From assembly GCA_902473205.1 (NCBI GenBank), contig CABRRA010000008.1:829-64828 (forward strand): a DNA stretch of 64,000 nt, given 5' to 3'. A program made the position numbers and the translations under genes. The first letter of the stretch is position 1, and each line of letters begins with the position of its first letter. The notes below the pieces were generated by a model that was given only the letters and a program-made list of their open reading frames with translations, made no database searches and was not told where the DNA came from. Source of the DNA: an uncultured Collinsella sp. (GTDB taxonomy: Bacteria; Actinomycetota; Coriobacteriia; Coriobacteriales; Coriobacteriaceae). Of the stretch, positions 14,027-34,119 are shown piece after piece.

Positions 14027-14164
14027 GTCTCAATCTGTAACATCTACAGGGCAAATCTTCCTCTACGTGTTACAGATCGAGACAAACGGTCGACACGGTT
14101 CACAAACGTCTCAATCTGTAACAGTTATCGAGTAAAATCGGCCCTAATTGTTATAGATCAAGAC
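14027..14164. repeat. Family A array A1: 2 units of the 80-81 bp periodic palindromic repeat
   Basis: 16-nt arms GTCTCAATCTGTAACA (14027-14042), TGTTACAGATCGAGAC (14068-14083), GTCTCAATCTGTAACA (14108-14123) and TGTTATAGATCAAGAC (14149-14164). Loops are 25 nt and the linker is 24 nt. Confidence 0.9.
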
Positions 14165-14343
14165 AGAGGGGGATTTCCGTTCAGTCCAAACCAAATCTCT
14201 CGCTCTTCCTGCAATTTCGAACATGTGGCCTATAATGTTGCTTTGGTTACGCTATATATTGCGCAGCCATTTAATACGTCGCCCACCGGGAGCCATTAAT
14301 TCCTATCGCCATATTGGCTAGGAAGCAATCAAAGGAGGTATCC

Positions 14344-15306
14344 GTGGCAGCAGAGACGCCTTGCTCGGTCCTCTATAACGATATTCGCTCGTTCGGCGGT
14401 CTTAAACATCTCGAGATCGCCCGAATGCTCATCAATGGAAACTCTTATCTCGGCAGTACCCTGCTCGAGAAATGCTCTTCCAACCGCTCGTATCTCACCC
14501 GTTACATCGTCCATCGCAAGCCTGACCAGTGCGCGCCCGCCATCTACAGCGACTTTACCGTCACCACGCTCAACCTTTCCGCGGCAATCTGCAGCAAGCT
14601 CGGCGGCGGCGAGTCCGCCTATCGGGCAATCGCCGAGCACTATCGCGGTCCGGCCGCCAACGAAATGATGTCGGCTCTCGCCAGCTACAAGCTGGACAGC
14701 CGCCTATATGCAAATACCCTCAATCGCATCGATAACTTTGACGGCAATGCCGTGCGCGAAAAAAGCACGCTCTTCTTGATGCTCTTTGTGGCAACGGGGG
14801 CGCTCGCCGATCCCGTTCAGGGCGTGGCCACCGTCGAGCGCTTTTGCGACAGCAAGACGGGCGGGCACTTTGGCACCACCGAAACTACCGTCGGACGTGG
14901 CTTTATGAGCAGCCTGGAGCAGCCGCGCACCGTCGCCCCCAACCTCGGTCTGCTCAGAACCCATGCCGACAACTGCGCCGACATGCAAATCCATCCCCTC
15001 ACACGCGATCCGCGCGGCACCGTAATTGGTTCTTTGCCCAAAACCTCGCCCAGCATCACCGATGTGGGCGCCGACGCATCGCGCGAGCATCTTCGCATTT
15101 GGCTTGAGGGTGAGCACTGGTACGCCCAGGGCCTTGGATCGACCAACGGCACGGTACTCGAATCGGGTGCAGGCGACGGCGATATTGTGATTGAGCCGCC
15201 GCGCGACCAACGCGAGCCCGGCAAGATCTATCCCCCAGTGAAAATCGAAAACAGCGACAGGCTCCATCTGGGTCTCTACACGACATTCCTTGTCATTGTG
15301 GACTAG
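14344..15306 (+). CDS. FHA-domain protein: an N-terminal region of unknown function followed by a C-terminal FHA domain
   Basis: The track ORF is 14314..15306. A likely GTG start at 14344 sits 6 nt after AAAGGAGG. The C-terminal stretch VIGSLP...DASREHLRIWLEGEHWYAQGLGSTNGTVLES...VKIENSDRLHLGLYTTFLV carries the FHA hallmarks (G-x, S-x-x-H, N-G-T). Confidence 0.75.
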   Translation: MAAETPCSVLYNDIRSFGGLKHLEIARMLINGNSYLGSTLLEKCSSNRSYLTRYIVHRKPDQCAPAIYSDFTVTTLNLSAAICSKLGGGESAYRAIAEHYRGPAANEMMSALASYKLDSRLYANTLNRIDNFDGNAVREKSTLFLMLFVATGALADPVQGVATVERFCDSKTGGHFGTTETTVGRGFMSSLEQPRTVAPNLGLLRTHADNCADMQIHPLTRDPRGTVIGSLPKTSPSITDVGADASREHLRIWLEGEHWYAQGLGSTNGTVLESGAGDGDIVIEPPRDQREPGKIYPPVKIENSDRLHLGLYTTFLVIVD

Positions 15307-15477
15307 CGCGGACGGCGATCGGAAGACGGTCGCCGTCCGTCTTTCGTCTTCTACCTTCTGCGTCGTAAACGACAATGCTCAGCGGTATACGTGGGCAGTG
15401 CGGCTATCATGGTACTTTACCGATATCCGCACTGCTCGCGTATACGTGCGGCAACCCATGCCAGACAAAGGAACGCC

Positions 15478-17562
15478 ATGGATACTACCGATAGCGCCTA
15501 TGGCGACAAACTCATCCGTCTCGATACGTTCGATACCGCCGTGGCGGTCGACCCCAGCGCCGAGGACGACGCCAAACGTCGGTTTATGACGCTTATTCTC
15601 CAGACGGCCCACCGCAACAACGGCAACATCGGGCACGTGCTGCGCGCGACCAACACGAGCGGCGAGGTCTTTGCCGTCAAGCTACTCAAGGACAACGCTA
15701 TCCTTTCCGGCCAAGCCCCCGACCGCTCCGCCGAGCAATCGGCCGCTCACTTGGCCAACACCGCCGCGCTATTCGAGGAGTACCGTCATCTTTGTACCGT
15801 CTCGCACCTGCGCGGATTTCCGCGCGTCTATGGCTACGGATCGTGCGAGGATGACCCGCTCATCCTCATGGAGTGGGTCGAGGGCACCTCGCTCAAGCAG
15901 GCGCTGCCCCTGCTTCCGCACGACGCCTCGGGCGGGCTGACCACCCAGATGGTCGCCGCCGTCGGAAACGCCGTGCTTCGTGCGCTCTTGATGACCCAAG
16001 GCCTCGTGAACCCGGTCATCCATCGCGATCTGTCGCCCGCCAATATTATGTTCCGCACCACCAGCCGAACGCTCGAGCAGCAGATTGCCGATTGCTCCTT
16101 TGACCCCTGCCTCATCGACATGGGCTCCGCGACCATGGCTCTCGGCGACGACACGATCACCCGGTGCGCCGACATCTGGCGCTTTGCCACGCCCGCATAC
16201 GCCGCGCCCGAGATGCTCACGCAGGATATCGAAGGCATCGCGGCCCTTCGCCGTTCGCCGGCAATCGACGTCTATGCGCTTTCGAGCATTCTGTACCAGC
16301 TCTACAGCGGTCGCAAACCGTTTGACTTTGAGTCGACGGACGCCGCTGCAACCGGCTCGTTCTATCTCGTAAAGACCAAGACCAAGCCGGCACCGCTCGA
16401 GCCGCGCTGCGAGGGCGATGAGGCGCTCGTCCAGATCATCATGAAGGGTCTCTCAGTCGAGCAGTGCGATCGTCCCACCGAGCAGCAGATGCTCGAGGTG
16501 CTCTCGGCATACCTCACCGACGCCGAATCCGAAGGCCGCGAAGGTGCAGGAGACGAGGCCGCAATTGATATCGATTCTGGCACGCACCTTAAGGTCGACG
16601 TCGCCGGCGAGCGCGCACGAGAGATCCTGAATCAGGCCCGCCACGATGCCATGACCCGCCGCCGCTTTATTATCGGCGGCGCTATCGCAGCCGTTGCGGG
16701 GCTCAGCGTTATCGGGGCGGCAACCCATGGCTTTGGCATCCCCGACTACCTCGACGGCATCCGCGGTTCACTTGACGACTACACCTGGGATCAGCTGCAG
16801 GAGATTTCGCTCAAGATTAAGGCCGCCGAGACCCGTAGCGAGGCACGCGAGATTGCCAAGCGCTATCACCTGCTCGATGCCGATGGGCATATCCCCTATC
16901 CGTGTACCAAGCGTGTCACGCTCACCAACGGGCTGCAGGTTGGCGCGCAGCTTGTGGGCATCCGCCACGATGAGCTTCTGGACGGGACGGGCAAGGCCGG
17001 ACTGACGTTTATGTTCGACGCGGGTATTGCCGAGCGCAACGCTGCGGCTGAACCGCCGAGCGCCGGCTGGGCAGATTGCGAGCTGCGGAAATGGCTCAAC
17101 GGCGACGGCCTTAAGCTGCTGCCCAACGAGTTGCGCGCACTCATCAAATCTGTCAAAAAGATCTCGAATAACGCTGGCGCCGCCAACAGTGCATCGTGTC
17201 TGAGCGAGTTGCCCGCAACCCTTTGGCTGCCCGCCATGGTCGAGCTGTGCGGTACGCAACCGCCCGATTCGTTTGCCAAGGACTATCACTACCTGGCAGA
17301 CATCTACAACGGCGAGGGCAAGGGGTACCAACTCTTCCGCGAGCTCAAGGTGAGCCCGTATTCCACGAACGAGACGATGGTCCGCCAGTGGAAGGGCAAG
17401 GACACCTGCTGGTGGGAGCGCACGGTGAGCCCCGACTCATCGGAGACCGAAGGCACGCTCTATTTGAATCGCGTTGGACACGACGGCGACGTCTTTACGT
17501 ACGCAACGCCTGCGGACAAGCCAAACAAACGAACCTGTGTGATCCCCGGATTCTGTATCTAG
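15478..17562 (+). CDS. Transmembrane Ser/Thr protein kinase (Hanks type) with a C-terminal extracytoplasmic domain resembling DUF6273
   Basis: The track ORF is 15391..17562. I place the start at ATG 15478, after AAAGGAA. Kinase motifs: VFAVKLL (VAIK Lys), IHRDLSPANIMF (HRD), LIDMGSA (DFG-like) and YAAPEM (APE). One TM segment, TRRRFIIGGAIAAVAGLSVIGAA, follows. The roughly 270-aa C-terminal domain contains GWADCELRKWLNGDG and TCWWERTVSP motifs. Confidence 0.85.
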   Translation: MDTTDSAYGDKLIRLDTFDTAVAVDPSAEDDAKRRFMTLILQTAHRNNGNIGHVLRATNTSGEVFAVKLLKDNAILSGQAPDRSAEQSAAHLANTAALFEEYRHLCTVSHLRGFPRVYGYGSCEDDPLILMEWVEGTSLKQALPLLPHDASGGLTTQMVAAVGNAVLRALLMTQGLVNPVIHRDLSPANIMFRTTSRTLEQQIADCSFDPCLIDMGSATMALGDDTITRCADIWRFATPAYAAPEMLTQDIEGIAALRRSPAIDVYALSSILYQLYSGRKPFDFESTDAAATGSFYLVKTKTKPAPLEPRCEGDEALVQIIMKGLSVEQCDRPTEQQMLEVLSAYLTDAESEGREGAGDEAAIDIDSGTHLKVDVAGERAREILNQARHDAMTRRRFIIGGAIAAVAGLSVIGAATHGFGIPDYLDGIRGSLDDYTWDQLQEISLKIKAAETRSEAREIAKRYHLLDADGHIPYPCTKRVTLTNGLQVGAQLVGIRHDELLDGTGKAGLTFMFDAGIAERNAAAEPPSAGWADCELRKWLNGDGLKLLPNELRALIKSVKKISNNAGAANSASCLSELPATLWLPAMVELCGTQPPDSFAKDYHYLADIYNGEGKGYQLFRELKVSPYSTNETMVRQWKGKDTCWWERTVSPDSSETEGTLYLNRVGHDGDVFTYATPADKPNKRTCVIPGFCI

Positions 17563-17604
17563 AGAGCGGGCGTCTTGCCGTGACGGGACCCCTCCCCGGC
17601 AATT

Positions 17605-17902
17605 GTCTCGATCTGTAACACTAGCTCGGCAGATACAGGTCTAGATGTTACAGAACGAGACAAACCCCAACCCCGCGAGACAACATCTCAATCTGTAACA
17701 ACTAGGACCCAAATATCGGTCTTGCTGTTACAGATCGAGATGTTCAGGTTACCCTCGAATGGTTTGTCTCGATCTGTAACATCTAGCAGGCAAAACAGTC
17801 CCCAGATGTTACAGATTGAGACGTTAAGTTGTGGCTCGATGAAATATCTAGATCTGTAACAGTTACTCGACAAAAACGGGTCTAGTTGTTACAGATTGAG
17901 AC
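17605..17902. repeat. Family A array A2: 4 units of the 80-81 bp periodic palindromic repeat
   Basis: Arms start at 17605, 17646, 17685, 17726, 17766, 17807, 17846 and 17887, alternating in orientation. Same-orientation spacing is 80, 81, 80 bp. Confidence 0.9.
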
Positions 17903-17979
17903 ATTAGACCGGCTACGGTCCGCCGACCTGGCTATCACCTCGGCCAATAACAGAATGGCATACATTTCAATCTCCACTG

Positions 17980-18004
17980 TACACCCCCAGGGGGTATGGG
18001 TGTA
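17980..18004. promoter_or_regulatory. Candidate CsoR operator upstream of copA
   Basis: TACACCCCCAGGGGGTATGGGTGTA contains the near-palindrome ACACCCCC-A-GGGGGTAT. This resembles known CsoR boxes of the type TACCC...GGGGGTA. It overlaps a TATAGT -10-like hexamer about 50 nt before the copA ATG, and a csoR gene lies in the same locus. Confidence 0.5.
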
Positions 18005-18055
18005 TAGTATCAGCAGGTTAACAATTCCAACACCGAACCACAGAAAGGAGAAGCC

Positions 18056-20395
18056 ATGGCTCAAGATAAGTTTGACGTGGGCGGCATGACGTGCGCCGCG
18101 TGCCAAGCGCACGTGGACCGTGCCGTCAGCAAACTCGACGGCGTCCAAAGCGTCGCGGTCAATCTGCTCGCCGGCTCTATGCTGGTGGACTACGACCCTG
18201 CGCAGGTCTCCCCCGACGACATTTGCACCGCTGTCGACCGCGCGGGCTACTCGGCCTCGCCCGTCAGCACGGGCATCGACGCCTCCCAAAACGGCAGTAC
18301 GCAAGCCAGGTCCGGCGCCGCCCATATGGAGTCGCCCACCAAAAAGCTGGAGGCCGCCGCCTCCGCCATGCGCACCCGCCTCATCATCTCGATCGTATTC
18401 CTCATCCCACTGTTCTACATAGGCATGGGGCACATGCTCGGCTGGCCGCTGCCCGGTATTTTCACCGACCATACCCACAGTATGACACTCGCGCTCACCG
18501 AGCTCGTCCTGCTCATCCCCATCGTCTACGTCAACGACGCGTACTTTATCAACGGGTTTAAATCGCTCGCGCACGGCGCGCCCACCATGGACGCCCTTAT
18601 TGCCGTGGGCGCCACCGCCTCCATCGCCTGGTCGCTCTACGCCATGTTCATCATGGCCGACCAGCTAGCCGCAGGTCAGGTGCACGAGGCCATGATGACG
18701 AGCATGGACAACCTGTATTTTGAGAGCGCTGGCACCATCCTGTCGCTCGTCACCGTGGGCAAATACCTCGAGACGCGCAGCAAGTCCAAGACCGGCGGCG
18801 CTATCGAGGCGCTCATCGACTTAGCACCCAAGACCGCGACCGTCGTGGCAGAGGACGGCAGCGAGGCCACCGTCGACGTCGATGCCATTCTGCCCGGCCA
18901 GGTGCTGCGTGTGCGCCCCGGCGAGTCCATCCCCGTTGACGGCGTGGTACTCGAGGGCGCTTCGGCCGTGGACGAAAGCGCGCTCACCGGCGAATCCATT
19001 CCCGTGGAGAAGACCGCCGGCGACACTGTCAACGCAGCCACGGTCAACCGCACGGGCTCGTTTACCTTCCGCGCCACGCGTGTGGGCGCCGACACGTCGC
19101 TCGCCAAGATTATCCAGCTCGTCGAGGACGCCAACGCCACCAAGGCGCCCATCGCCCGCATGGCCGACAAGGTCGCCGGCGTGTTCGTGCCCGTAGTATT
19201 CGCAATCTCGGCCGTGACCTTTGTGGTGTGGATGGTGCTGACCGGAAGCATCAACGAAGCGCTTACCTCCGCCGTCGCCGTGCTGGTGATCAGCTGCCCG
19301 TGCGCGCTGGGCCTGGCCACGCCCGTCGCCATTATGGTCGGCACCGGCAAGGGCGCCGAGATGGGCATTCTGTTTAAGAGCGCCGAAGCGCTGGAGAACC
19401 TGCGCAGCGTGGGCACCGTAGTACTCGACAAGACGGGCACCGTCACCCGCGGCAAGCCGGCTGTGACCGATATCACGGTAGCCACGCGCGCTGACGGCTC
19501 GCCCACCATGAGCGAAAAGGCGTTGCTCAAGCTGGCCGCTGCGCTGGAGCGCTCAAGCGAGCACCCGCTGGCCGAGGCGATTATGGCCGAGTGCAAGGCG
19601 CGCGGAATCGTCGCACGCATGGTCGAGGACTTTGCCGCCGTGCCCGGGCGAGGCGTTACGGCACGCGAGGGGCAGAATGTCATCGCCGCCGGCAACGTGC
19701 GTCTGATGGACGAGCTGGGCGCGAAGGTGCCCGCCGGCCTTGCCGAACAGTTCGCGGCCGAGGGCAAGACGCCGCTGTTCTTTGCCAAGAACAGCGAGCT
19801 TGTCGGTACCATCGCCGTGGCTGATGAGGTCAAAGAGACGAGCGCCGAGGCCATCGCCGCGCTCCGCAAGCTCGGCATCGACGTGCGCATGCTCACCGGC
19901 GACAACCGCGTGACAGCCGAAGCGATCGCCCGCCGCGTGAGACTGAGCAGCGAGCAGGTCATCGCCGACGTCCTCCCCGCCGACAAGGAACGCCACGTGC
20001 GCGAGCTGCAGGATGCGGGCAGCAAGGTCGCCATGGTGGGCGACGGCATCAACGACTCCCCCGCCCTGGCGCGCGCCGACGTGGGCCTTGCCATCGGTAC
20101 CGGCGCCGACATCGCCAAAGAAGGGGCAGATGTGGTTCTCATGCGCAGCGACCTCATGGACGTCGCCCGCGCCATCGAGCTTTCGCGCGCCACGATTCGT
20201 AACATCAAGCAGGACTTGTTCTGGGCGCTGTTCTACAACGGCATCGGCATTCCGCTCGCCGCGGGCGTGTTCTTCCCCCTCACCGGTTGGCAGCTCTCGC
20301 CGATGTTTGGCGCCGCAGCCATGAGTCTGTCGAGCGTCTGCGTCGTAAGCAATGCGCTGCGCCTAAAATCCTTTAAGCCTAAAGTGGCAAAATAG
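18056..20395 (+). CDS. copA: Copper-translocating P1B-type ATPase
   Basis: 779-aa ORF. N-terminal HMA domain [11 protein letters not shown], transmembrane CPC motif ([13 protein letters not shown]), DKTGTVT phosphorylation site, and [19 protein letters not shown]. Confidence 0.95.
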
Positions 20396-20542
20396 GCTCA
20401 CCACTAAGTCCATTTAGAACGGGTTTTCCAGGTGCCCGAGATTGACCTGAAAGAGGAGCGACGCGTACTTTGATACGCGAGCGACGGCTTGAAGGTCAAG
20501 GTCGGGTGCCTGGGAAAGCCGACACAACAGAGAGGAATATCC

Positions 20543-20764
20543 ATGCGTTTCACAATTAAGACTTCCGGCCTTATGTGCGGCCACTGCGACGCCACCGTCG
20601 AGACGGCGCTGCTCAACGTTGCCGGCGTAACCGATGCCGACGCCGATCACGAGACCCAGACTGTCCAGGTGGAGTGCGCCGACACCGTGACCGTCGAGCA
20701 GCTCACCGCCGCTGTCGAGGGCGCCGGCGAGAAGTTCCACGCCCTTTCGGTGACCGCCGCATAG
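20543..20764 (+). CDS. copZ: Heavy-metal-associated (HMA) copper chaperone
   Basis: The track ORF is 20489..20764. I place the start at ATG 20543 (MRFTIKTSGLMCGHCDATVETAL...), after AGAGGAA. The MxCxxC metal-binding motif is present. Confidence 0.85.
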   Translation: MRFTIKTSGLMCGHCDATVETALLNVAGVTDADADHETQTVQVECADTVTVEQLTAAVEGAGEKFHALSVTAA

Positions 20765-20790
20765 CAGTCGCTGCCTACTGAATCCTCAGA

Positions 20791-20857
20791 AGTTGCGGTG
20801 AAATACGGACTGTTGAGCCGCCCTAGGCCTTTAAACAGTCCGTATTTCGCCGCAACT
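20791..20857. repeat. Family B palindromic element (AGTTGCGGTGAAATA...TATTTCrCCGCAACT), copy 1
   Basis: Arms AGTTGCGGTGAAATACGGACTGTT (20791-20814) and AACAGTCCGTATTTCGCCGCAACT (20834-20857) pair at 23/24 positions. It lies between copZ and csoR. Confidence 0.85.
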
Positions 20858-20899
20858 GACGGGGGCATCCGGAAGATCGACCAGAAACGAGGACCCGCC

Positions 20900-21172: not shown

Positions 21173-21182
21173 TTGGGGCATT

Positions 21183-21263
21183 GGGGACAGACTTCTTTGC
21201 ACCGTCTTGGTATTCCGGGGACAGGTATGTTTGCACCACATTGGTGCAGATTAACCTGTCCCC
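21183..21263. repeat. Family F repeat (GGGGACAGGTnnnTTTGCACCA): two half-copies plus a nested palindrome. Possible csoR terminator
   Basis: GGGGACAGACTTCTTTGCACCG (21183-) is followed by GGGGACAGGT-atgtt-TGCACCA-cat-TGGTGCA-gatta-ACCTGTCCCC (21217-21263). Related copies lie at about 51936-52056 and 58717-58740. Confidence 0.7.
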
Positions 21264-21318
21264 CTTGCTCTAAATCGGGTATAAAGGCGTGCAGCATATC
21301 GAACGAAAGGCAATTTGC

Positions 21319-23255: not shown

Positions 23256-23403
23256 ATCGAGCTCCTCCCTCACGATTAACTTGAACATTTGTCCATTATC
23301 ACCTAGTCCCGCTGGATTGCTGCAGACGCATCGGTTAACGGAGGGAAGAGGGGATATGGGGGACGGAATACGTTGAGCCCCACCCCAGCAACATCAGGGA
23401 AAT

Positions 23404-23541
23404 GTCTCGATCTGTAACAGGTACAGGGTTATTGGGCCCCTTGATGTTACAGATCGAGACATTCGGTCGACGTTTCACCGGCTTGTCTCGATCTGTAACA
23501 ATTACGAGCTCAAACGACCTCTAAACGTTACAGATCGAGAC
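23404..23541. repeat. Family A array A3: 2 units
   Basis: Arms at 23404-23419, 23445-23460, 23485-23500 and 23526-23541. Period 81 bp. Confidence 0.9.
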
Positions 23542-23549
23542 GAAACCTC

Positions 23550-24620
23550 TCAGCGCCCATACCACTGGCGTCTCCACTCCTCAGCCAAATCGGCCCGCTG
23601 CGAAATACCCGCCAACCTCATTTTCTCGACCAGCTTCCCCGGGTCTTTGAGTTCGTTAAACGTAAACCGAAGCACCTTGTGCCCGAGCATTGTCAGATGA
23701 GATTCCCGCTGGCGCTCTGCCACGAACGGGTCGACCGACTCCCGACCCTCGCCGTTCTGCAAGGCATACTTCCCCTTTCCGTCGAGCTCGCCGATGACAC
23801 ATGTCCCGTCCTCGAGCCTCCAGAAATAATCGACCCGAAACACCTGGCTCAAATCGAGCGGATCGCGAAACTCCACCTGCAACTCCGGAACCGGAAAGCC
23901 GTATGCAATAAAGAACGCCCGAAAGCGAGACTCGCCGCCGTTCTCGGACAGCCCGTCCGCATGCGACGCAATCACCTGAGCTCTGCGATACCCTCGCCTG
24001 CCCTCGCAATCGACCTGGAGCCGCTCGCAGAGGTCGTCGCGCGACATGCCCTTCGCCCGCAATGCAGAATCGGCGATCGCCAGACCATACGAAAACGGCG
24101 CACGCAGCAGACAATCCTCCACCGTGCGCCAAAACGGCGTCACCCGCACGCCATCGACTTGCTCAAGCACACCCGCCGTCTGCGGACGCAGCAGCCTACA
24201 CCCCATACTCAATGCCACCGAACATCCCGTTTTGACCAAGTAACGCGGCCCGAGCAGATCATTCGGCAACTCCAGACCCCACAAAAGTGCTGCGTCATAC
24301 CCCCAAAACGCCCAATCGGGATGAAACTCCGCAAGCCCCTTGATGGTCCACCGCGCCCGCTCCGGAGGCATCAACGCATCCCATTCATGCTGAAAACAGA
24401 ACAAATACGGCTCGGGCTCCGCAATATCATCGGTTCCCACATGACGCCGCAGCCACATGAGTTCGGCATTGTCGTGTGTCACAAGCAGCACGCCTTGTTC
24501 AGCCGCCTCCGTGAGCCTGGCAAGCATCCTATTCCGCGCCAAGGTGTTACGTGTTGCATGCTTGTGTTTAAAAACGGTATTAGACACTTCCATCACCACC
24601 ACATCGGAGAAATGGGCCAT
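23550..24620 (-). CDS. Restriction-endonuclease-like (DUF559 / Vsr-like) domain protein
   Basis: The track ORF is 23550..24686. Its first 22 codons are encoded by array A4, so I start at ATG 24620. The C-terminal stretch SENGGESRFRAFFIAYGFPVPELQVEF...FRVDYFW...VIGELDGKGKY matches the E-S...G-(L/F)-P-x-P-x-x-Q...R-x-D...E-x-D-G pattern common in actinobacterial DUF559-type proteins. Confidence 0.6.
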   Translation of the reverse strand: MAHFSDVVVMEVSNTVFKHKHATRNTLARNRMLARLTEAAEQGVLLVTHDNAELMWLRRHVGTDDIAEPEPYLFCFQHEWDALMPPERARWTIKGLAEFHPDWAFWGYDAALLWGLELPNDLLGPRYLVKTGCSVALSMGCRLLRPQTAGVLEQVDGVRVTPFWRTVEDCLLRAPFSYGLAIADSALRAKGMSRDDLCERLQVDCEGRRGYRRAQVIASHADGLSENGGESRFRAFFIAYGFPVPELQVEFRDPLDLSQVFRVDYFWRLEDGTCVIGELDGKGKYALQNGEGRESVDPFVAERQRESHLTMLGHKVLRFTFNELKDPGKLVEKMRLAGISQRADLAEEWRRQWYGR

Positions 24621-24646
24621 CGTCGCTGTTGCCGCCGCCGACAAGC

Positions 24647-24784
24647 GCCTCGACCTGTAACAGTTACGGGCACAAGCAGCCGCCAAACGTTACAGATCGA
24701 GACGTTCGCGCAGCATTGCACCTCTTTGTCTCGATCTGTAACAGGAAGACCGGTTTTTTGTCCCTAAACGTTACAGATCGAGAC
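24647..24784. repeat. Family A array A4: 2 units, with a degenerate first arm
   Basis: Arms at 24647-24662 (GCCTCGACCTGTAACA), 24688-24703, 24728-24743 and 24769-24784. Period 81 bp. Confidence 0.85.
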
Positions 24785-24824
24785 ATAAAGGCGGAAGGCA
24801 GGGCATGCGACAACTGCTCATCCC

Positions 24825-25532: not shown

Positions 25533-25820
25533 GGCATCCTCCTCAAACTGATGAACCTCAATTTGAGCTTACGAGGAGGGTGGGCAGCCACGACCAGCGC
25601 GGGCAAAATAGGCCTCCGGCTGCAAACCAGATGCTGACCAAACACTTGACGAAAAGCTTGACCGAAAATGCGCACCGCAACAAAACCGCAGGTAAACATA
25701 GACGGCCAACCCGCCCTTTTGAGCCAGATACCCACAGCCACCACAGAAACAACAGGTGACCACAGCCCAAGAAGTCGACAAATGAACACCCGTACGTCGA
25801 CAAACGAGCAAATCGCTCGC

Positions 25821-25879
25821 AAAGAGTGTCCCCAACGACTAGACAAAAAAAATGACTAGTCATTGGGGACGTTCTTAAA
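25821..25879. repeat. Family D repeat (GTCCCCrAyGACTAGTC pair), inverted configuration
   Basis: AAAGAGTGTCCCCAACGACTAGAC, then A8, then TGACTAGTCATTGGGGACGTTCTTAAA. The second half is the reverse complement of the second half at 56740-56765. It abuts the gltD stop. Confidence 0.8.
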
Positions 25880-25887: not shown

Positions 25888-27369
<1,482 letters not shown>

Positions 27370-27374
27370 GGCAC

Positions 27375-30300
27375 TTACGCCTCCTTCTTGGTCGAAGCAA
27401 CAGAGCTGGCGGCGGGCACAGCGCCAGCGACACCACCCGCCACATCGAAGCGAGCGACATCGGCGGCGTCGGCGCGACCGGTCACGATGTCAAACGCCAG
27501 CTCCTCGGCCTGCTCATGCGTCTTGCCGACGGCCTCACCCGCAGCGACAATCGCCAGCACGCGCTCGTACTCGGTCGGAATGACCTTCACAAAGTGCTTG
27601 CTCATCGTCTCAAAGCTGTAGAGCAGCTTAATGCCGCGCGGGCTCTGCGTCGCGTCCACGTGCTCCTGGATGAGCGCACGAATCTGCGCCAGCTCGCCGG
27701 CCGTCGGGGCCTTGAGCTCAACGCTCTCGTGGTTCACGCGGGCATCGAGCGTGCCGTACTGATCGAAGACATAAGCCACGCCACCCGTCATACCTGCGGC
27801 GAAGTTCTGCCCGGCCTCGCCCAAGATGAGCGCCAGACCGCCCGTCATGTACTCGCAGCCATGGTTGCCGCAGCCCTCGACCACCACCGTGGCACCGGAG
27901 TTGCGTACGCCAAAGCGCTGGCCTGCCAGGCCGTTGATGAAGCCGCGGCCGCTCGTAGCGCCAAAGAACGCAACGTTGCCCACGATGATGTTCTCGTCGA
28001 ACTTGTAGGTCGCATGCGGGTTGGGGCGCACCGATACCTCGCCGCCCGAAAGACCCTTGCCAAAGTAGTCGTTGGCGTCGCCGCACACGTTGAGCGTAAT
28101 GCCGCGCGGAAGGAACGCGCCAAAGCTCTGACCGGCCGAACCATCGCAATCGATGGTGATGGAGCCGGCGGGCAGACCCTCGGGATGCGCCTTGGTCACC
28201 GCGTTGCCCAAAATAGTGCCCACGCAGCGGTTGACGTTGGCGATGTCGGCGCGGAAGCGAATCGGGCGCAGGTGCGCACGGGCATCGGCCGTATAGGGCA
28301 CAAACAGCGTGGAGTCGAGCGTCTTGTCGAGCTCACTGTCCGCAGCCATCTGCGGCAGGAAGTGACGACCGTCGGCACCCGGGATGTGGGCACCGAACTC
28401 GCAGGTCGCGCTCGCCAGCACGGGCGACAGATCGAGCAGGTTGGCCTTGCGGTTGCCCGGGACCTCAATCTGGCGCAAGCACTCGGGATGGCCGACCATC
28501 TCGTCGACGGTGCGGAAGCCCAGGCTCGCCATGACCTCGCGCAGCTGCTCGGCAACAAAGAGCATAAAGTGTTCGACGTGCTCGGGCTTGCCGCGGAAGC
28601 CGCGACGCAGGCGGCAGTTTTGCGTGGCGATGCCGGCCGGGCAGGTATCCTGCTGGCAGTCGCGCTGCATAAGGCAGCCCATGGAGATGAGCGGCATGGT
28701 AGCAAAGCCAAACTCCTCGGCGCCCAACAGGCAGGCGACGGCGACGTCGGTGCCGTCCATGAGCTTGCCGTCGGCCTCGAGTACCACGCGCGAGCGCAGG
28801 CCGTTTTGCAGCAACGTCTGTTGAGCCTCGGCAAGGCCAAGCTCCAGCGGCAGACCGGCGTGCCAGATCGAATCGCGCGCCGCAGCACCGGAGCCGCCGT
28901 TGTGGCCGCTGATCAAGATCTTGTCGGCGGCACCCTTGGCCACACCGGTGGCGATGGTGCCGACGCCGGCCTCGCTGACCAGCTTGACCGACACGCGTGC
29001 GCCGGGGTTGGCGTTCTTAAGATCGAAGATCAGCTCTGCCAAGTCCTCGATGGAGTAGATGTCGTGGTGCGGCGGAGGCGAAATCAGGCCGATGCCGGGC
29101 GTGGACTGACGGACCTCGGCAATCCAGGGGTAGACCTTCTTGCCGGGCAGGTGACCGCCCTCACCGGGCTTGGCGCCCTGGGCCATCTTGATCTGAATCT
29201 CGAAGGCGCTGCACAGGTAGCGGCTCGTCACGCCAAAGCGCGCGCTTGCCACCTGCTTGATGGCGGAATTCTTGGAGTCACCGTTGGCCAGCGGGGTCTC
29301 GCGACGCGGATCCTCGCCGCCCTCGCCCGAGTTGGAACGACCGTGCAGGCGGTTCATGGCGATGGCCATGCACTCGTGTGCCTCTTTGCTGATGGAACCG
29401 TACGACATGGCGCCGGTGTTAAAGCGGCGGACGATGTTGAGCGCGGGCTCCACCTCGTCGAGCGAAACCGGCGTGCGACCGTTGGCATTAAAGTCCAGCA
29501 GGTCACGCAGGCGCACGGCACGGCCGGTGCGGTGCAGGCGGGCGCTGTACTCCTTAAAGGTGTCGTAGCTGTCCTCGCGGCAGGCGGTCTGCAGCAGGTA
29601 GACGGTCTGCGGGTCGATAAGGTGATCCTCGCCGCCGAGCGGGCGCCACTTGGTCAGGCCCAGCGTGGGCAGCTGATCGGGAGCCGGGCTCTTAAGGATA
29701 GCGAGCGCGGCGTCGTAGCGCTCATTCTGCTCGCGCTCGACGTCCTCGACACCCATACCGCCCACACGGCTCACCGTGCCGGCGAAGTACGCGTTGACGA
29801 ACTCCGGAGTGAAGCCCACGGCCTCGAAGATCTGCGCCGAATGGTAGCTCTGCACCGTGGAGATGCCCATCTTGGACATGATGGAAACGATGCCGGCGGT
29901 CGCAGCCTTGTTGTAGTTGGCGATGCCCTGCTCGGCCGTCACGTCCAGGTCGCCGCGTGCCGCCAGATCGCGGATGCACGCATGTGCGTTGTACGGATAG
30001 ATGCCGCTCGCGGAGTAGCCCACCAGCGCCGCAAAGTCGTGCGGAGACACGGCGTCGCCGCACTCCACCACGATGTCGGCAAAGGTACGCACGCCGGCGC
30101 GGATCAGGTGGTTGTGCACGCAGCCCACGGCGAGCAGCGACGGCACGGGCACCTCACCCGCAGCGGCGCGATCGCTCAACACCACGATGTTCACGCCGTC
30201 GCGGACCGCAGCCTCAACATCCTCTGCAAGCTGCTTGAGCGCAGCCTGCAGCGCGCCCTCGCCGGCGTCGCGGCGGTACACGGCACGGAAACGGCGGGTC

Positions 30301-30701
30301 TTAAAGCCCACGCGGTCGATGGCGCAGATACGCTCGAACTCCTCCTCGCTCAGCAACGGACGCTCCAAGCGCACCAGCTGGCAGGCCGTGCGGGAGTCCT
30401 CGAGCAGGTTGCCGTGGTTGCCCAGGTAGAGCGTGGTCGAGGTGACCATATGCTCGCGCAGGGCATCGATCGGCGGGTTCGTGACCTGGGCGAACAGCTG
30501 ATAGAAGTAGTCGAAGAACGAGCGCGTCTTCTTGGACAGGCAGGCCAGCGGCGCATCGATACCCATCGAGGCGAGCGGCGCCTTGCCCTGCTGGGCCATG
30601 GGACGCACGACTTCGTCAACATCATCCCAGTGATACCCGAGCTTGGCCATGCGCACGGCGGCGGGCACCTCGGTATCCTCGGCGGGCGTGGGCGCCCACA
30701 T
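27375..30701 (-). CDS. gltB: Glutamate synthase large subunit, central, FMN and C-terminal domains; this is the C-terminal fragment of a frameshift-split gltB
   Basis: 1108-aa ORF with LFAQVTNPPIDALRE, the FMN/Fe-S region (ISPPPHHDIYSIEDL, CLMQRDCQQDTCPAGIATQ) and the C-terminal GxxGxxxG beta-helix region. Its frame differs from the N-terminal fragment, and the two overlap by 80 nt. Confidence 0.9.
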   Translation of the reverse strand: MWAPTPAEDTEVPAAVRMAKLGYHWDDVDEVVRPMAQQGKAPLASMGIDAPLACLSKKTRSFFDYFYQLFAQVTNPPIDALREHMVTSTTLYLGNHGNLLEDSRTACQLVRLERPLLSEEEFERICAIDRVGFKTRRFRAVYRRDAGEGALQAALKQLAEDVEAAVRDGVNIVVLSDRAAAGEVPVPSLLAVGCVHNHLIRAGVRTFADIVVECGDAVSPHDFAALVGYSASGIYPYNAHACIRDLAARGDLDVTAEQGIANYNKAATAGIVSIMSKMGISTVQSYHSAQIFEAVGFTPEFVNAYFAGTVSRVGGMGVEDVEREQNERYDAALAILKSPAPDQLPTLGLTKWRPLGGEDHLIDPQTVYLLQTACREDSYDTFKEYSARLHRTGRAVRLRDLLDFNANGRTPVSLDEVEPALNIVRRFNTGAMSYGSISKEAHECMAIAMNRLHGRSNSGEGGEDPRRETPLANGDSKNSAIKQVASARFGVTSRYLCSAFEIQIKMAQGAKPGEGGHLPGKKVYPWIAEVRQSTPGIGLISPPPHHDIYSIEDLAELIFDLKNANPGARVSVKLVSEAGVGTIATGVAKGAADKILISGHNGGSGAAARDSIWHAGLPLELGLAEAQQTLLQNGLRSRVVLEADGKLMDGTDVAVACLLGAEEFGFATMPLISMGCLMQRDCQQDTCPAGIATQNCRLRRGFRGKPEHVEHFMLFVAEQLREVMASLGFRTVDEMVGHPECLRQIEVPGNRKANLLDLSPVLASATCEFGAHIPGADGRHFLPQMAADSELDKTLDSTLFVPYTADARAHLRPIRFRADIANVNRCVGTILGNAVTKAHPEGLPAGSITIDCDGSAGQSFGAFLPRGITLNVCGDANDYFGKGLSGGEVSVRPNPHATYKFDENIIVGNVAFFGATSGRGFINGLAGQRFGVRNSGATVVVEGCGNHGCEYMTGGLALILGEAGQNFAAGMTGGVAYVFDQYGTLDARVNHESVELKAPTAGELAQIRALIQEHVDATQSPRGIKLLYSFETMSKHFVKVIPTEYERVLAIVAAGEAVGKTHEQAEELAFDIVTGRADAADVARFDVAGGVAGAVPAASSVASTKKEA

Positions 30702-32097
30702 GGTAATCGGCGATGCGCGCTTCGACGGGCTTGTCGAGCGCGTCGACGGTCAGCGTCTCCTCGGCGATCCAGTCGCGATAGGGCTTTTCCTTGGCGTAAC
30801 GGGCGCGCAGCTCGTCGTTGTAGATGACGCGGCCGCGGGCAAAATCGACCTCGAGCATCTGGCCCGGTCCCAGACAGCCGCTCGTCAGGATGTTCTCGGG
30901 GCGTACCTCGATGGTGCCCACCTCGCTCGCCAGCATAAAGCGACCGTCGCGCGTCACATAGTAGCGGGCGGGGCGCAGGCCGTTGCGGTCGAGGGCGGCA
31001 CCCAGGGTACGGCCGTCGGTAAAGGCGATGGCGGCCGGACCGTCCCACGGCTCCATGAGCATGGACTGGTAAGCGTCGTAGGCGCGGCGCTCCTCGCTCA
31101 GGCTGTCGTTGTGGTCCCACGGCTCGGGCAGCAACATGGACGCGGCACGCGTAAGCGGGCGACCGTTCATGACCAAAAACTCAAGCACATTGTCCAGAAT
31201 CGCGGAGTCGGAACCCTCGCGGTTGATGATGGGCATCACGCGCTCAAGATCGTGCTGCAGCACGGGGCTGTACAGGTTGGGCTCGCGGGCGCGAATCCAG
31301 TTGACGTTGCCCTTGAGGGTGTTGATCTCGCCGTTGTGGATGATAAAGCGGTTGGGGTGCGCGCGCTCCCAGCTGGGCGTGGTGTTGGTGGAGTAGCGCG
31401 AGTGGACGAGCGCTACGGCCGTCTTGACGGCGGCGTCGTTGAGGTCGATGAAAAAGCGGCGCATCTGCGTGGCGACCAGCATGCCTTTGTACACGATGGT
31501 GTGAGAGCTCATGGAGCACACATAGAAGATCTTGCCGCGCAGGGCAAACTCGGCGTCGGCCTTCTTCTCGATGGTGCGGCGGCACACGTACAGGCGACGC
31601 TCAAAGGCATCGCCGGCGAGCGTGTCGTCCGGACGGCCCAGGAAGGCCTGCAGGATGGTAGGCATGCAGGCGCGGGCCGTCTCGCCCAGGTCGTGCGGGT
31701 CGACCGGCACCTCGCGCCAAAAGAGCAGCGGCACGCCAGCCTCGGCGCAGCCTTCCTCAAACACGCGACGGGCATCCTCTACGCCCTTGTCGTCCTGCGG
31801 GAAGAACAGCATGGCCACGCCATAGTCGCCCTCTGCCGGCAGAATCTGGCCGCACTTTTGAGCCTCTTTACGGAAAAAGTGATGCGGAACCTGGAACAGG
31901 ATGCCAGCGCCGTCGCCGGTGTTCTTCTCGAGTCCCGTGCCGCCGCGGTGCTCCAAGTTGACCAGAATGGACAGCGCATCGTCCAGAATCTGGTGATGGC
32001 GCTCACCGTTGATATCGGCAAGCGCGCCGATGCCACATGCATCGTGATCGAATTCGGGGCGATAAAGGCCCTGCTGCTGAGCGGAATCTGCCTGCAT
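30622..32097 (-). CDS. gltB: Glutamate synthase large subunit, N-terminal Ntn glutamine amidotransferase domain; this is the N-terminal fragment of the split gltB
   Basis: 491-aa ORF: MQADSAQQQGLYRPEFDHDACGIGALADING..., then HSRYSTNT and HNGEINT. GGGGAGGA SD. The frame ends in out-of-frame-looking Arg/Gly residues (VGAHARRGYRGARRRAHG...). Confidence 0.9.
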   Translation of the reverse strand: MQADSAQQQGLYRPEFDHDACGIGALADINGERHHQILDDALSILVNLEHRGGTGLEKNTGDGAGILFQVPHHFFRKEAQKCGQILPAEGDYGVAMLFFPQDDKGVEDARRVFEEGCAEAGVPLLFWREVPVDPHDLGETARACMPTILQAFLGRPDDTLAGDAFERRLYVCRRTIEKKADAEFALRGKIFYVCSMSSHTIVYKGMLVATQMRRFFIDLNDAAVKTAVALVHSRYSTNTTPSWERAHPNRFIIHNGEINTLKGNVNWIRAREPNLYSPVLQHDLERVMPIINREGSDSAILDNVLEFLVMNGRPLTRAASMLLPEPWDHNDSLSEERRAYDAYQSMLMEPWDGPAAIAFTDGRTLGAALDRNGLRPARYYVTRDGRFMLASEVGTIEVRPENILTSGCLGPGQMLEVDFARGRVIYNDELRARYAKEKPYRDWIAEETLTVDALDKPVEARIADYHVGAHARRGYRGARRRAHGQARVSLG

Positions 32098-32281
32098 CGC
32101 GATCCTCCCCTAGATATTTAGACAGTCAGTTGAATAGGCATACTAGGAGCATCGCCGGCCCGTTGTGTTTCCCGCCCGTTTCGAAACAATCGCGTAACGC
32201 GCGCCCTACGAGTGGACACCACCGACATCAAGGACGACAACAAGGGCCCCAGGTTCGGCCCGTAAGCTCACCGCTTCAAAC

Positions 32282-32498
32282 ATCTCAATCTGTAACAGAA
32301 AGACCCAATTTCGACGACTTACTGTTACAGATCGAGATGTTTTCGAGAGACGGTTCCGAATGTCTCAATCTGCAACACGAAGGGCCGGTTTTGGCGGTCA
32401 GCTGTTACAGATCGAGATTTTCCATAGGACCATTTCTTCCTGTCTTGATCTGTAACACCTAGACCCAATTTCCATCCCTAGTTGTTACAGATCAAGAC
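32282..32498. repeat. Family A array A5: 3 units
   Basis: Arms at 32282, 32323, 32362, 32403, 32442 and 32483. Periods 80 and 80 bp. Confidence 0.9.
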
Positions 32499-32618
32499 AT
32501 TTCGGCAGCCCCCTTCCTCATCCTATTCAAATACAGCTATTTCGTTAGTCTTGGTTAACTTCGAGCCTAAAACGGGTATCCTTTGCGGCGTCAAGCAAAC
32601 GGCACGCAGGAGCGCACC

Positions 32619-33875
32619 ATGATCAACCATCTCAAACATCACTTTGGCTCCCCGCGCACCGGTGGCCACGGAGGACTCGACATCGCACGGCATATCGGCC
32701 CCGGACTGCTCGTGACCGTCGGCTTTATCGACCCGGGCAATTGGGCCTCCAATATGGCCGCCGGCTCGCAGTTTGGCTACGCGCTGCTGTGGATCGTCAC
32801 GCTGTCCACGATCATGCTCATCGTGCTACAGCACAACGCGGCGCACTTGGGCATCGCCACGGGCATGTGTCTCGCCGAGGCCACGACGCGCCACCTGCCC
32901 CGCCTCGTCGGGCGTGCGATACTCGGCAGCGCGTATCTAGCCACGGTCGCCACCGCCATGGCCGAAGTCCTGGGCGGTGCGATCGCGCTTCAAATGCTCT
33001 TTGGCCTGCCCGTACGCGCCGGCTGCATCATCGTGGCGGCGGTATCGATTGCCATGCTCATGACAAGCTCCTACAAACGCGCCGAGCGCTGGATCATCGC
33101 CTTCGTAGGCGTGGTAGGACTTTCGTTTTTGGCCGAGCTTGCACTAGTCAAGGTCGAATGGCCGCAAGCCGCCGCAAGCTGGATCACACCCAGTATGCCC
33201 ACCGGCTCGGCCGCGATTATCGTAAGTGTCCTAGGCGCGGTCGTTATGCCCCACAACCTCTTCCTACACTCCGAGGTCATCCAATCCATGCACTTCGAAG
33301 GCCAAGGCGAGCGGGTTATCGAAGAACGCCTGCGCTACGAACTCTTCGACACGCTCTTTTCGATGGGCGTGGGCTGGGCAATCAACTCGGCCATGGTCAT
33401 CCTGGCCGCAACGACCTTCTTTGCGCACGGCATGGTCGTAGACGACCTCGCCGTCGCAGCGGCCACGCTCTCCCCCATTCTGGGCCCGGCAAGCTCGATT
33501 ATCTTTGCGGTGGCACTGCTATTTGCGGGCATATCGAGTAGTGTGACGGCGGGCATGGCGGCGGGCACCATCACCGCAGGCATGTTCGACGAGGAATACG
33601 ACATCCACGACCGACACTCCTCGATCGGGGTGACGGCCTGTTTCGTCGGCGCAGTGACGGCGTGCCTGGTCGTCCCGAATCCTTTCGAGGGTCTCATTTG
33701 GAGTCGGGCGCTGCTGTCGCTTCAGCTGCCGATTACGGTCTTTGTGCTCATACGACTCACCAGTTCGCCCCGCGTCATGGGCAAATACGCCAACTCGCGC
33801 CCGCTCAACACGCTGCTTGTAGGGATCGGTGTCGTCGTAACGGCGCTCGACGCCGTGCTGCTAACGGGGATGTGA
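32619..33875 (+). CDS. mntH: Nramp-family divalent metal (Mn2+/Fe2+) transporter
   Basis: The track ORF is 32583..33875. I place the start at ATG 32619, after AGGAG. It has GPGLLVTVGFIDPGNWASNMAAGSQFGYALLW (the DPGN motif) and a multi-TM body. Confidence 0.9.
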   Translation: MINHLKHHFGSPRTGGHGGLDIARHIGPGLLVTVGFIDPGNWASNMAAGSQFGYALLWIVTLSTIMLIVLQHNAAHLGIATGMCLAEATTRHLPRLVGRAILGSAYLATVATAMAEVLGGAIALQMLFGLPVRAGCIIVAAVSIAMLMTSSYKRAERWIIAFVGVVGLSFLAELALVKVEWPQAAASWITPSMPTGSAAIIVSVLGAVVMPHNLFLHSEVIQSMHFEGQGERVIEERLRYELFDTLFSMGVGWAINSAMVILAATTFFAHGMVVDDLAVAAATLSPILGPASSIIFAVALLFAGISSSVTAGMAAGTITAGMFDEEYDIHDRHSSIGVTACFVGAVTACLVVPNPFEGLIWSRALLSLQLPITVFVLIRLTSSPRVMGKYANSRPLNTLLVGIGVVVTALDAVLLTGM

Positions 33876-33902
33876 TCGAACGGAGCACCTACCCAGGCAA
33901 AC

Positions 33903-34119
33903 GTCTCGATCTGTAACATCTAGGCCCGCTTTTGATGTCTAGATGTTACAGATCGAGATCATTCCGAGGGACAGCTCCGTTTGTCTCAATCTGTAACACG
34001 TAGGCCCCGTTTTCGCTGCTAGATGTTACAGATTGAGATCTTCTGCCGGACGGTTTTGGTTTGTCTTGATATGTAACAAGTGGGCCCAATTTCCACTTCT
34101 AGATGTTACAGATCGAGAC
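33903..34119. repeat. Family A array A6: 3 units
   Basis: Arms at 33903, 33944, 33983, 34024, 34063 and 34104. Periods 80 and 80 bp. Confidence 0.9.

Follow-up and report, generated by a model that had tools for sequence, protein, structure and literature searches.

REPINs are doublets of REP sequences that form hairpins and are mobilised by RAYT transposases, and the BIMEs of enterobacteria (bacterial interspersed mosaic elements), which are clusters of REP sequences, are bound by IHF, gyrase and Pol I. BIMEs have been regarded as protein-binding platforms (PMC2817692). In the NIMEs of Neisseria (neisserial intergenic mosaic elements), dRS3 inverted repeats (20 bp, ATTCCC-N8-GGGAAT) separate RS spacers of 19-214 bp; hundreds of NIMEs occur per genome, and a phage recombinase targets dRS3. 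NIME arrays have been proposed to serve as recombination substrates or as insertion places for the genes that they flank (PMC1797815). The repeat family described here, found in a 64-kb stretch of DNA from an uncultured Collinsella sp. (the window) and in related genomes, resembles these systems in part.

The building block of the family is an arm of 15-17 nt, R-TCTCRATCTGTAACA. A unit consists of two inverted arms (TGTCTCRATCTGTAACA) around a 25-nt centre and units recur with a period of 80-81 bp, so that arm orientation switches every 40 bp. Two kinds of spacer of 25-26 nt are present: the inner centre, which is semi-conserved and carries TAG/CTA plus an A/T tract at the dyad, and an outer linker, which is poorly conserved. 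Among 382 units, collected from 120 Collinsella blocks and the window, the centre was always 25 nt and the period 80-81 nt. The arrays contained 1-8 units and every one of them was intergenic.

The extragenic location, the short motif regularly spaced in alternating orientation, the two kinds of spacer and the variable copy number are all shared with BIMEs. A short conserved element combined with reused variable spacer families is also typical of NIMEs, and an inverted repeat pair with a short spacer, able to form a long hairpin and found both singly and in regular clusters, is typical of REPINs. However, a REP is an imperfect palindrome of ~35 nt (the stem-loop class being ~20-40 nt), whereas the Collinsella arm has no internal self-complementarity and a palindrome exists only as the arm pair. 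Compared with BIMEs, the Collinsella repeats also have a much lower copy number, strong clustering and rigid 25-nt spacers, no RAYT was found, and the host belongs to the Actinomycetota (Coriobacteriia). Unlike in NIMEs, spacer length is constant at 25-26 nt, and the arm is unrelated in sequence to dRS3 and not self-palindromic.

The arms were conserved to 95-100% at 14 of 15 positions among 359 distinct units, and orthologous units had diverged by 3.0% in the arms, 8.8% in the centres and 17.4% in the linkers. As a single strand, each unit can fold into a stem of 17-21 bp (dG -13 to -21 kcal/mol, z -3.7 to -10). Covariation of this hairpin, in arms and centre, was nevertheless rejected, as changes in the stem were uncompensated. 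The variable arm positions were independent between the two arms (positions 5/51: GC 110, AC 86, AT 82, GT 79), with Watson-Crick pairs at 53% compared to the expected 50% and A.C not depleted. No excess of G.U over A.C was seen on the transcribed strand (144 vs 165, P=0.26). These data show that the arms are constrained in sequence, not in pairing, and conservation without covariation points to a sequence reader of the arms rather than to a selected hairpin. The units differ in this from REPINs, for which a RAYT partner would also be expected and was not found, and from integron attC sites, in which the pairing is conserved while the sequence varies. An orientation code was considered and rejected, since the A-tract orientation of units varies both within arrays and between orthologous arrays.

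The window contains 16 units in six arrays, with two and four units in A1 and A2, two each in A3 and A4, and three each in A5 and A6. These counts had been given in a first-pass annotation of the sequence, and a fuzzy search of the 64 kb bore them out, with no whole unit outside the six arrays. The heptamer TGTAACA occurs 28 times in the window compared to 2.7 times expected, and all copies except one, at 37853, are inside arrays. A1 (14026..14165) is located in the divergent gap between a DEAD-box helicase gene on the minus strand and an FHA-domain gene on the plus strand (14314-15306). The latter is followed on the same strand by a gene for a Ser/Thr kinase with DUF6273 (15391-17562), and A2 (17604..17903) lies in the co-directional gap between the kinase gene and copA, so that A1 and A2 bracket the FHA and kinase genes. 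A5 (32281..32499) separates gltB on the minus strand from the Nramp transporter gene mntH on the plus strand (32583-33875), and A6 (33902..34120) lies in the convergent gap downstream of mntH, which is thus the gene bracketed by A5 and A6. The only whole-array likeness in the window is that of A5 to A6, 76% over 223 nt.

A3 and A4 bracket a minus-strand gene for a hypothetical protein of 356 aa (23550..24620). A3 (23403..23542) lies between the start of an amidohydrolase gene and the stop codon of this gene and ends 7-8 nt from that stop, as had been observed earlier; A2, A3 and A6 all lie shortly 3' of stop codons. A4 (24646..24785) lies upstream of the gene, 26 nt from its probable start at 24620. 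It had been described as overlapping the 5' end of the listed ORF, which is correct for the longest ORF (to 24686) but not for the 356-aa form, whose start at 24620 is common to many homologues. The protein is conserved in Collinsella, where over 100 protein clusters show 83-94% identity. Of the identities given earlier to the bracketed genes, FHA, Ser/Thr kinase and Nramp/MntH were confirmed, while the only match behind 'DUF559/Vsr-like' is a sub-threshold one to DUF559 in Pfam (E=0.045, 14 bits vs a cut-off of 20.6). No functional theme was shared among the array-flanking genes; the metal-related genes (copA, csoR, mntH) appear together by local coincidence, and a defence island was discarded because PADLOC gave generic kinase matches only.

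Only the Collinsella aerofaciens group and close relatives carry the family: the genome matches to units were nearly all from Collinsella, and the sampled loci formed ~19 locus clusters. The sites have remained stable and can be matched as orthologues in many species, and from the sampled blocks and the locus clusters we estimate about 20-30 orthologous array sites per genome. Clade restriction, inheritance at orthologous sites and master-like subfamilies are further features in common with REPINs.

A 0.9-Mb piece of a C. aerofaciens chromosome carries ~30 units, with arrays in 13 of its 482 intergenic gaps. Arrays are therefore rare, and the finding that would have refuted the first-pass annotation, arrays at most intergenic regions, did not occur. 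Neighbouring arrays no more than two gaps apart were found three times compared to 0.63 times expected (P=0.02), and the largest number of arrays in any 20 kb was five (P=0.001). Close spacing thus exceeds chance at the genome scale, although the earlier grouping of the six arrays into three pairs is partly arbitrary, since A2 and A3 also bracket five genes and A4 and A5 three to four. In this one piece, which is replichore-sized and has a uniform GC skew, all 13 arrays are at 402-877 kb and 0-400 kb is without any. The idea of parS-like, origin-proximal elements was dropped, as neither the window nor the 0.9-Mb record contains an origin marker, and only the regional bias is noted. The 400 kb without an array and the rigid phasing at 40 bp are hints of a function for the host, of which a purely selfish or neutral repeat would have no need.

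No transposase, integrase or recombinase gene recurred within 2.5 kb of the arrays, and no integrase gene was present in the window or near arrays. The arms resemble the terminal inverted repeats of a MITE, but no short target-site duplication flanked the units and no insertion sequence with arm-like ends was found in the 0.9 Mb or in the loci. No gene for a RAYT (a Y1/HUH transposase) was found among 126 representative array-near ORFs or in the 0.9-Mb record, which together cover ~40% of a genome. The only IS200/IS605 tnpA gene seen, beside A6 in one strain, was rejected as a partner, because it belongs to an ordinary insertion that is present in two copies and has its own, unrelated hairpins. 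CRISPR arrays have direct repeats of 23-47 nt and unique spacers, whereas the Collinsella repeats alternate in orientation, share spacer families, have no cas genes nearby and gave no CRISPR match above threshold in Rfam. A phage origin was discarded as blastn of phage genomes gave no match; 'viral' contigs matching units numbered only 12, and several of these carry ORFs that cluster with host loci. With Rfam, at gathering as well as permissive thresholds, the arrays were assigned to no family: tRNAs and the L31-Coriobacteria leader were the only elements of the window to pass, and the only array matches, to microRNA hairpins far below threshold, were spurious. No description of the family was found in the searchable literature on Collinsella repeats, REPs or MITEs, and this palindromic intergenic repeat family of the C. 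aerofaciens group is apparently undescribed.

The three sets of bracketed genes are syntenic, with identical spacing, in all sampled array-bearing relatives, and each bracketed gene is known from one site only. In the outgroup locus L143 they occur in the same order (FHA-kinase, a weak DUF559-like gene, mntH) with no arm at all. L145, L146 and L147 are likewise without arms, and mntH is present without arrays in both L143 and L144. From the collinearity in the array-less L143, with GltD identity standing in for phylogeny, we infer that the three gene sets of the window are probably older than the arrays. L144 (87% identity) has a degenerate relative of the arm at the site equivalent to A3, so that L143 may instead have lost its arrays. 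The first-pass annotation had suggested, as one possibility, that the bracketed genes are mobile or recombining cassettes. For the genes of the window this is not supported, given their synteny, in the array-less L143 as well, the single site of each, and the lack of a recurring transposase or integrase gene. Movement of these genes between array sites was rejected for the same single location, and a CAP-domain gene elsewhere in NZ_OY725717.1 proved unrelated.

The arrays themselves change between relatives. Orthologous sites differ in unit number and orientation, in steps of whole units; A5 has 1-3 units in relatives, and all that is left of A6 in L093, L134 and NZ_OY725717.1 is half a unit or a single arm. 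In L051, the unit orthologous to the first unit of A2 (A2.1) has kept its arms and flanks around an unrelated centre. Centre subfamilies are common to non-orthologous sites, with as many as 24 of the 25 nt shared. One recent array insertion at a new site is polymorphic, with L120 having an array that NZ_OY725717.1 lacks. It is flanked on either side by a 40-nt duplication of the target hairpin, which is unlike the footprint of a transposase. A long flanking duplication was not accepted as a general footprint, as it was clear only at L120, with the array at 510.9 kb (c8) suggested as a second case.

Genes have also come and gone at arrays, and to this extent the cassette or variable-gene proposal was supported. 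A CAP-domain gene (1116 aa) is located between unit 1 and units 2-4 of A2 in L051/L057, a Fer4 gene splits A5 in L133 and L135-L138, and at another site the 'empty' allele for an AAA-ATPase gene has one undivided array. In addition, the FHA-kinase pair beyond A2 is swapped for other genes in L135-L142. On both sides of the AAA-ATPase insertion lies a duplicated sequence of 245 nt that contains locus-specific flanks, and this fits homologous recombination or target duplication and not exchange at the arms. Syntenic arrays that differ in repeat number and array-flanked genes are both known from NIMEs. However, the higher divergence of genes adjoining NIMEs has no significant counterpart here (91.8% vs 93.1%, P=0.15). 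The arrays had also been suggested to be insertion hot spots, but most indels that distinguish the 0.9-Mb relative from the window were at gaps without arrays.

The reading that we prefer, with a probability of roughly 55%, is that of a clade-specific mosaic repeat family of the C. aerofaciens group, similar to BIMEs and NIMEs, which was added to existing spacers and sometimes serves as a recombination substrate. Judging from the array-less collinear outgroups, the family would have inserted into intergenic spacers that were already present, and the centre subfamilies at non-orthologous sites suggest that whole units were dispersed between sites. The arrays would then have been retained at orthologous sites and grown or shrunk by the whole-unit steps that are seen. 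The most likely cause of the constraint on arm sequence would be a candidate reader, such as a transposase, recombinase or architectural protein, recognising each arm on double-stranded DNA. The close spacing in the window would be best explained if arrays had spread locally into adjacent spacers. As array-filled spacers consist mostly of array, and the arms provide short homology, insertions, deletions and swaps of genes would sometimes hit an array, so that units remain on either side of the change, as in the three cases elsewhere described above. Evidence against this reading is that neither a recurring enzyme gene near the arrays, nor an insertion sequence with arm-like ends, nor a short target-site duplication was found, and the hints of a host function also count against it.

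It has also to be considered that the repeats form a gene-cassette system, in which anything between arms, be it a spacer of 25 nt or an entire gene, is exchanged and the three pairs are occupied slots. We regard this as unlikely. The three genes that vary in presence between flanking units, the undivided array of the empty allele, the swapped segment adjoining A2, the centre replaced between intact arms in L051, the centre subfamilies common to several sites and the conservation of arm sequence rather than pairing all agree with it. Palindromic sites at gene boundaries, with some single genes present or absent between them, are also like integron attC sites. On the other hand, there are 2-4 Collinsella units per junction and not one attC per cassette, there is no integrase, and the bracketed genes are in both orientations, include the core genes gltBD and copA, and pre-date the arrays according to the outgroup comparison. 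Each is known from a single site, no recombinase gene recurs near the arrays, and the AAA-ATPase insertion has its 245-nt duplication. A chance insertion into a spacer that is ~60% array would moreover often split the array, and the core spacers of known tyrosine and serine recombinase sites are far shorter than 25 nt. The same model has been proposed for NIMEs (PMC1797815).

If the arrays had a host function, they could be architectural or regulatory sites, i.e. phased platforms for a clade-specific protein with roles in domain organisation, supercoiling or linked to replication. The rigid 40-bp phasing with an A/T tract at the dyad, the strong arm conservation without covariation, the stable orthologous positions across many species and the restriction of the 13 arrays to 402-877 kb are consistent with such sites, but the positional survey covers one genome piece. 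In addition, sister Collinsella lineages are without arrays in the same collinear region, A6 was lost in L093, L134 and NZ_OY725717.1 without visible consequence, and unit number and orientation vary freely per site, which makes this function improbable. In their logic, such sites would be comparable to parS, matS and the gyrase-binding BIME-2 clusters.

A bolder possibility, to which we give rather little credence, is that the arms are sites of a clade-specific recombinase or architectural protein and the arrays a platform for gene capture and exchange, like an integron or NIME but without the known enzymes. Such a platform would account for the rigid 40-bp phasing, for the exchange of a centre while its arms stay intact and for the confinement of arrays to one part of the chromosome.

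A role at the RNA level, in which transcribed hairpins would terminate transcription in both directions, insulate, or protect mRNA 3' ends like the REPs of E. coli, is very doubtful. Every unit can fold, A2, A3 and A6 lie just after stop codons, and high-GC Actinomycetota are reported to terminate at hairpins without U tracts. However, the stem changes are uncompensated, A.C mismatches are not depleted and G.U is not in excess on the transcribed strand. Unlike rho-independent terminators, the units are not followed by a T run (a U tract in RNA). A terminator consensus scan called none of the unit stem-loops, giving only two weak calls in unit centres, and a separate family of canonical terminator hairpins exists in these genomes. 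The arrays showed no preference among convergent, divergent and co-directional gaps (38/41/50), with divergent promoter gaps as frequent as convergent ones, and therefore the transcriptional insulators put forward in the first-pass annotation are not favoured either.

C. aerofaciens, whose genomes are very plastic, ranks among the commonest actinobacteria in the human gut. With its rigid geometry and conservation at the level of sequence, the 15-nt motif provides a handle for fishing out a DNA-binding or recombination protein. The variation of unit number at fixed sites could be used for strain typing, as with MIRU-VNTR, and the arrays may explain some of the contig breaks in metagenome-assembled Collinsella genomes. 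If the arrays are passive, the family is useful as an annotation, and genes bracketed by repeats should be checked against an outgroup before they are labelled cassettes. Should the arrays stimulate the exchange of genes, they would drive the turnover of accessory genes locally, a role that has been proposed for the NIMEs of Neisseria.

By repeat finding combined with pattern searches and a direct reading of the sequence, 16 repeat units were located in the window, each with two inverted arms (15-17 nt) around a 25-nt centre, in six intergenic arrays. The first-pass annotation had likewise reported six arrays and no others, and no further unit was found across the 64 kb. The heptamer TGTAACA is present in 28 copies compared to 2.7 expected, with one copy outside the arrays. 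According to Pfam, a DEAD-box helicase gene (minus strand) lies left of A1 (14026-14165, 2 units), and FHA and Ser/Thr kinase (with DUF6273) genes separate A1 from A2 (17604-17903, 4 units). Between A2 and A3 (23403-23542, 2 units) are genes for CopA, a small HMA protein, CsoR, a zinc-ribbon protein and an amidohydrolase (minus strand). A 356-aa hypothetical protein is encoded between A3 and A4 (24646-24785, 2 units) on the minus strand (Pfam gene map); its earlier label, DUF559/Vsr-like, has a Pfam match behind it, but a sub-threshold one (E=0.045). Genes for a 235-aa hypothetical protein, GltD and GltB, all on the minus strand, follow between A4 and A5 (32281-32499, 3 units), then MntH between A5 and A6 (33902-34120, 3 units), and a flavin reductase (minus strand) right of A6.

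The paired arrays (A1/A2, A3/A4, A5/A6) had been proposed as borders of cassettes carrying the FHA-kinase pair, the 356-aa gene and mntH. In substance, comparison with relatives refutes this for the bracketed genes of the window. Gene order is maintained among array-bearing relatives, where partner arrays are spaced as in the window (1108/1141, about 1409 and 3443 nt). GltD homologues of falling identity led to the orthologous 21-kb region in five less closely related Collinsella lineages, which served as outgroups. One of these loci, L143 (GltD 90 % identical), has the window's gene order of mntH, gltB, gltD, two hypotheticals, amidohydrolase, zinc ribbon, CsoR, HMA, CopA, kinase and FHA, the hypotheticals standing where the window has its 235-aa and 356-aa genes. 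No unit, arm or TGTAACA was found at this locus, and its kinase-copA spacer equals the window spacer minus the array. As gene order is the same in the array-less L143, the bracketed genes pre-date the arrays, and the cassette proposal is not supported for them. Units and arms are likewise absent from the orthologous locus in L145, L146 and L147. In L144, a degenerate arm relative, TGTCTG-N5-TGTAACA, occurs at two spacers (11679-11794 and 14226-14440), mostly as direct repeats with irregular spacing and with one cluster at the A3-equivalent spacer; this motif may represent a sister form of the repeat family, or an older one.

The wider suggestion that arrays bracket variable genes has support from three genes present or absent in relatives with units on both sides. 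At A2 in L051 and L057, a CAP-domain gene (1116 aa) sits precisely at the junction of unit 1 with units 2-4, while A2 of the window has four contiguous units and no such gene. At the A5 site, a Fer4 gene lies between two 2-unit arrays in L133 and between 3- and 2-unit arrays in L135-L138. An AAA-ATPase gene lies between 2-unit arrays in L043, L035 and L022, at a site with a single undivided array in L048, L070 and L078; the occupied allele contains a 245-nt direct duplication of array and flanks. Beyond A2 in L135-L142 (e.g. L135 17484-21125) the FHA-kinase pair is swapped for genes encoding Band_7/zinc-ribbon (525 aa), 244-aa and TPR-TIR_2 (778 aa) proteins, a set that may be a defence module. 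An integron-like cassette system would accommodate genes lying between units; insertion into a spacer that is ~60 % array would often split the array by chance, each cargo gene is known from a single site, and no recurring transposase or integrase was found within 2.5 kb of arrays. We regard such a system as unlikely.

NZ_OY725717.1, labelled a plasmid in PLSDB, is an 899,693-bp C. aerofaciens chromosome piece which includes the window's region at 92.7 % identity. Indels between the two are mostly in array-less gaps (10.4/11.5 kb, 37.96 kb, 43.5 kb and the 1-6 kb island), and higher divergence of array-adjacent genes was not significant in this comparison (P=0.15). The insertion hot-spot role also suggested for the arrays is therefore not demonstrated. 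As the ORF at 3187-3501 has no counterpart in NZ_OY725717.1, window positions 1-6000, which have low GC (0.42-0.45 compared to about 0.61), are probably an acquired island.

Surveyed over its whole length, NZ_OY725717.1 contains 13 arrays with 30 units, all within 402.7-876.8 kb. Five of the arrays lie within 20 kb and are orthologous to A1-A5, A6 being decayed there, and five are solitary. At 746650-761358 (L163), a LacI-PTS-lacG module is present in three tandem paralogous copies, each with a 2-unit array after it (arrays 751-761 kb), which suggests that the segment was duplicated along with its array, or that duplication proceeded through the array. Of 482 intergenic gaps, 13 contain an array, and in simulations on this sequence the arrays were clustered, with a maximum of 5 per 20 kb (P=0.001), 3 neighbouring arrays at most two gaps apart compared to 0.63 expected (P=0.02) and an array-free first 400 kb (P=0.002). 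A scan of the genome collection in 8-kb blocks with ATCTGTAACA-N23-27-TGTTACAGAT matched at least 120 blocks, almost all Collinsella, in ~19 locus clusters. Of these blocks 31 map to window 11-38 kb, and all clusters mappable to NZ_OY725717.1 fall at 402-880 kb. A host architectural role of the arrays could be read from this confinement, but this role, too, appears improbable. The arrays had no preference for gap topology (divergent 41, convergent 38, co-directional 50). No common function was found among flanking genes, examples being tuf, prfC, dxs, coaX, sugar PTS and LacI genes and peptidases.

In the 382 units extracted from these blocks and the window, the centre was 25 nt without exception and the period 80 nt in 133 cases, 81 nt in 92 and 79 nt in 7, with 1-8 units per array, usually 2-3. 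Their consensus reads R-TCTCRATCTGTAACA nn TAG n5 WWW n5 CTA nn TGTTACAGATYGAGA-Y. Counting arms as 15 nt makes the spacers, inner as well as outer, 25-26 nt long, so that a 15-nt site recurs along an array in 40-bp steps and changes orientation each time. Arm conservation was 95-100 % at 14 of 15 positions (359 distinct units), and orthologous units diverged least in arms (3.0 %), more in centres (8.8 %) and most in linkers (17.4 %). Positions 5/51 (GC 110, AC 86, AT 82, GT 79), like 0/56 and 4/52, varied without covariation between the arms, and the inner spacer had no self-complementarity past TAG/CTA. The conserved feature is each arm's sequence, not the pairing. Every unit could fold into a strong hairpin when single-stranded. 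Co-directional gaps had no excess of G.U over A.C on the transcribed strand (144 compared to 165, P=0.26). That units act as RNA hairpins is the least probable alternative. No Rfam family matched the repeat, and no description was found in the searchable literature.

Array presence can be polymorphic: L120 has a 2-unit array at a site where NZ_OY725717.1 has none. The empty site's 40-nt terminator hairpin is duplicated in L120, with one copy on each side of the array; this hairpin is a member of a second palindrome family, likewise dispersed, that also flanks the array at 510.9 kb. Centre subfamilies, up to 24/25 nt identical, are common to non-orthologous sites, and hence whole units were copied between sites.

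The second family, AAACCACCACAAAGG-GGACAGGCA-CCTTTGTGGTGGTTTT, has a loop conserved in both orientations and looks like a bidirectional terminator. It occurs in the window (38838-38887, 51923-51972) and in NZ_OY725717.1 (L148-L166; e.g. 152579, 237195, 250208, 510862, 511256, 733846), where 13 or more copies were counted over 0.9 Mb; two of the arrays are flanked by it on both sides, one copy is interrupted by IS1249 and another is truncated near an IS3. At 511124-511165 of NZ_OY725717.1 (L158), a 13-nt unit, AAACCGGTAGACA, has grown from one array's outer end to three tandem copies. In the same record, a tnpA element of the IS200/IS605 type (422700-423530; L149 42700-43530), with hairpins of its own and AAATCA at both junctions, is inserted beside the decayed A6 half unit, and an identical tnpA is at 533435. 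The window also contains four copies of a third small repeat, GATCCCATGGGGACGGAGGAAAACGGATCACTT (10121-10153, 10519-10551, 34169-34201, 41187-41217), one just right of A6, and three of a 23-nt repeat, CAAAGAGTGTCCCCRACGACTAG (25820-25842, 56714-56736, 56741-56763), the first two 96 % identical. Compared with NZ_OY725717.1, gltB on the minus strand carries an insertion of 28 nt (about 30695-30722) that splits it into two overlapping frames (30622-30722); GltB is intact in relatives (1525-1568 aa), and the split marks either a pseudogene or an error in the assembly. Two minus-strand tRNA genes and, upstream of rpmE, an L31-Coriobacteria ribosomal-protein leader (36686-36850, 52567-52602) are ordinary and consistent with a Coriobacteriia origin.

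The closest known kinds are NIMEs (PMC1797815) and BIMEs (PMC2817692). The Collinsella repeats differ from them at the sequence level and with regard to the REP palindrome, and are therefore an analogue of these elements, not a member. The evidence fits best with a BIME/NIME-like mosaic family specific to the clade. Such a family would have been added to pre-existing spacers, its arms being kept by a putative sequence-specific reader; its arrays would spread locally and occasionally to new sites, and may sometimes serve as a recombination substrate.
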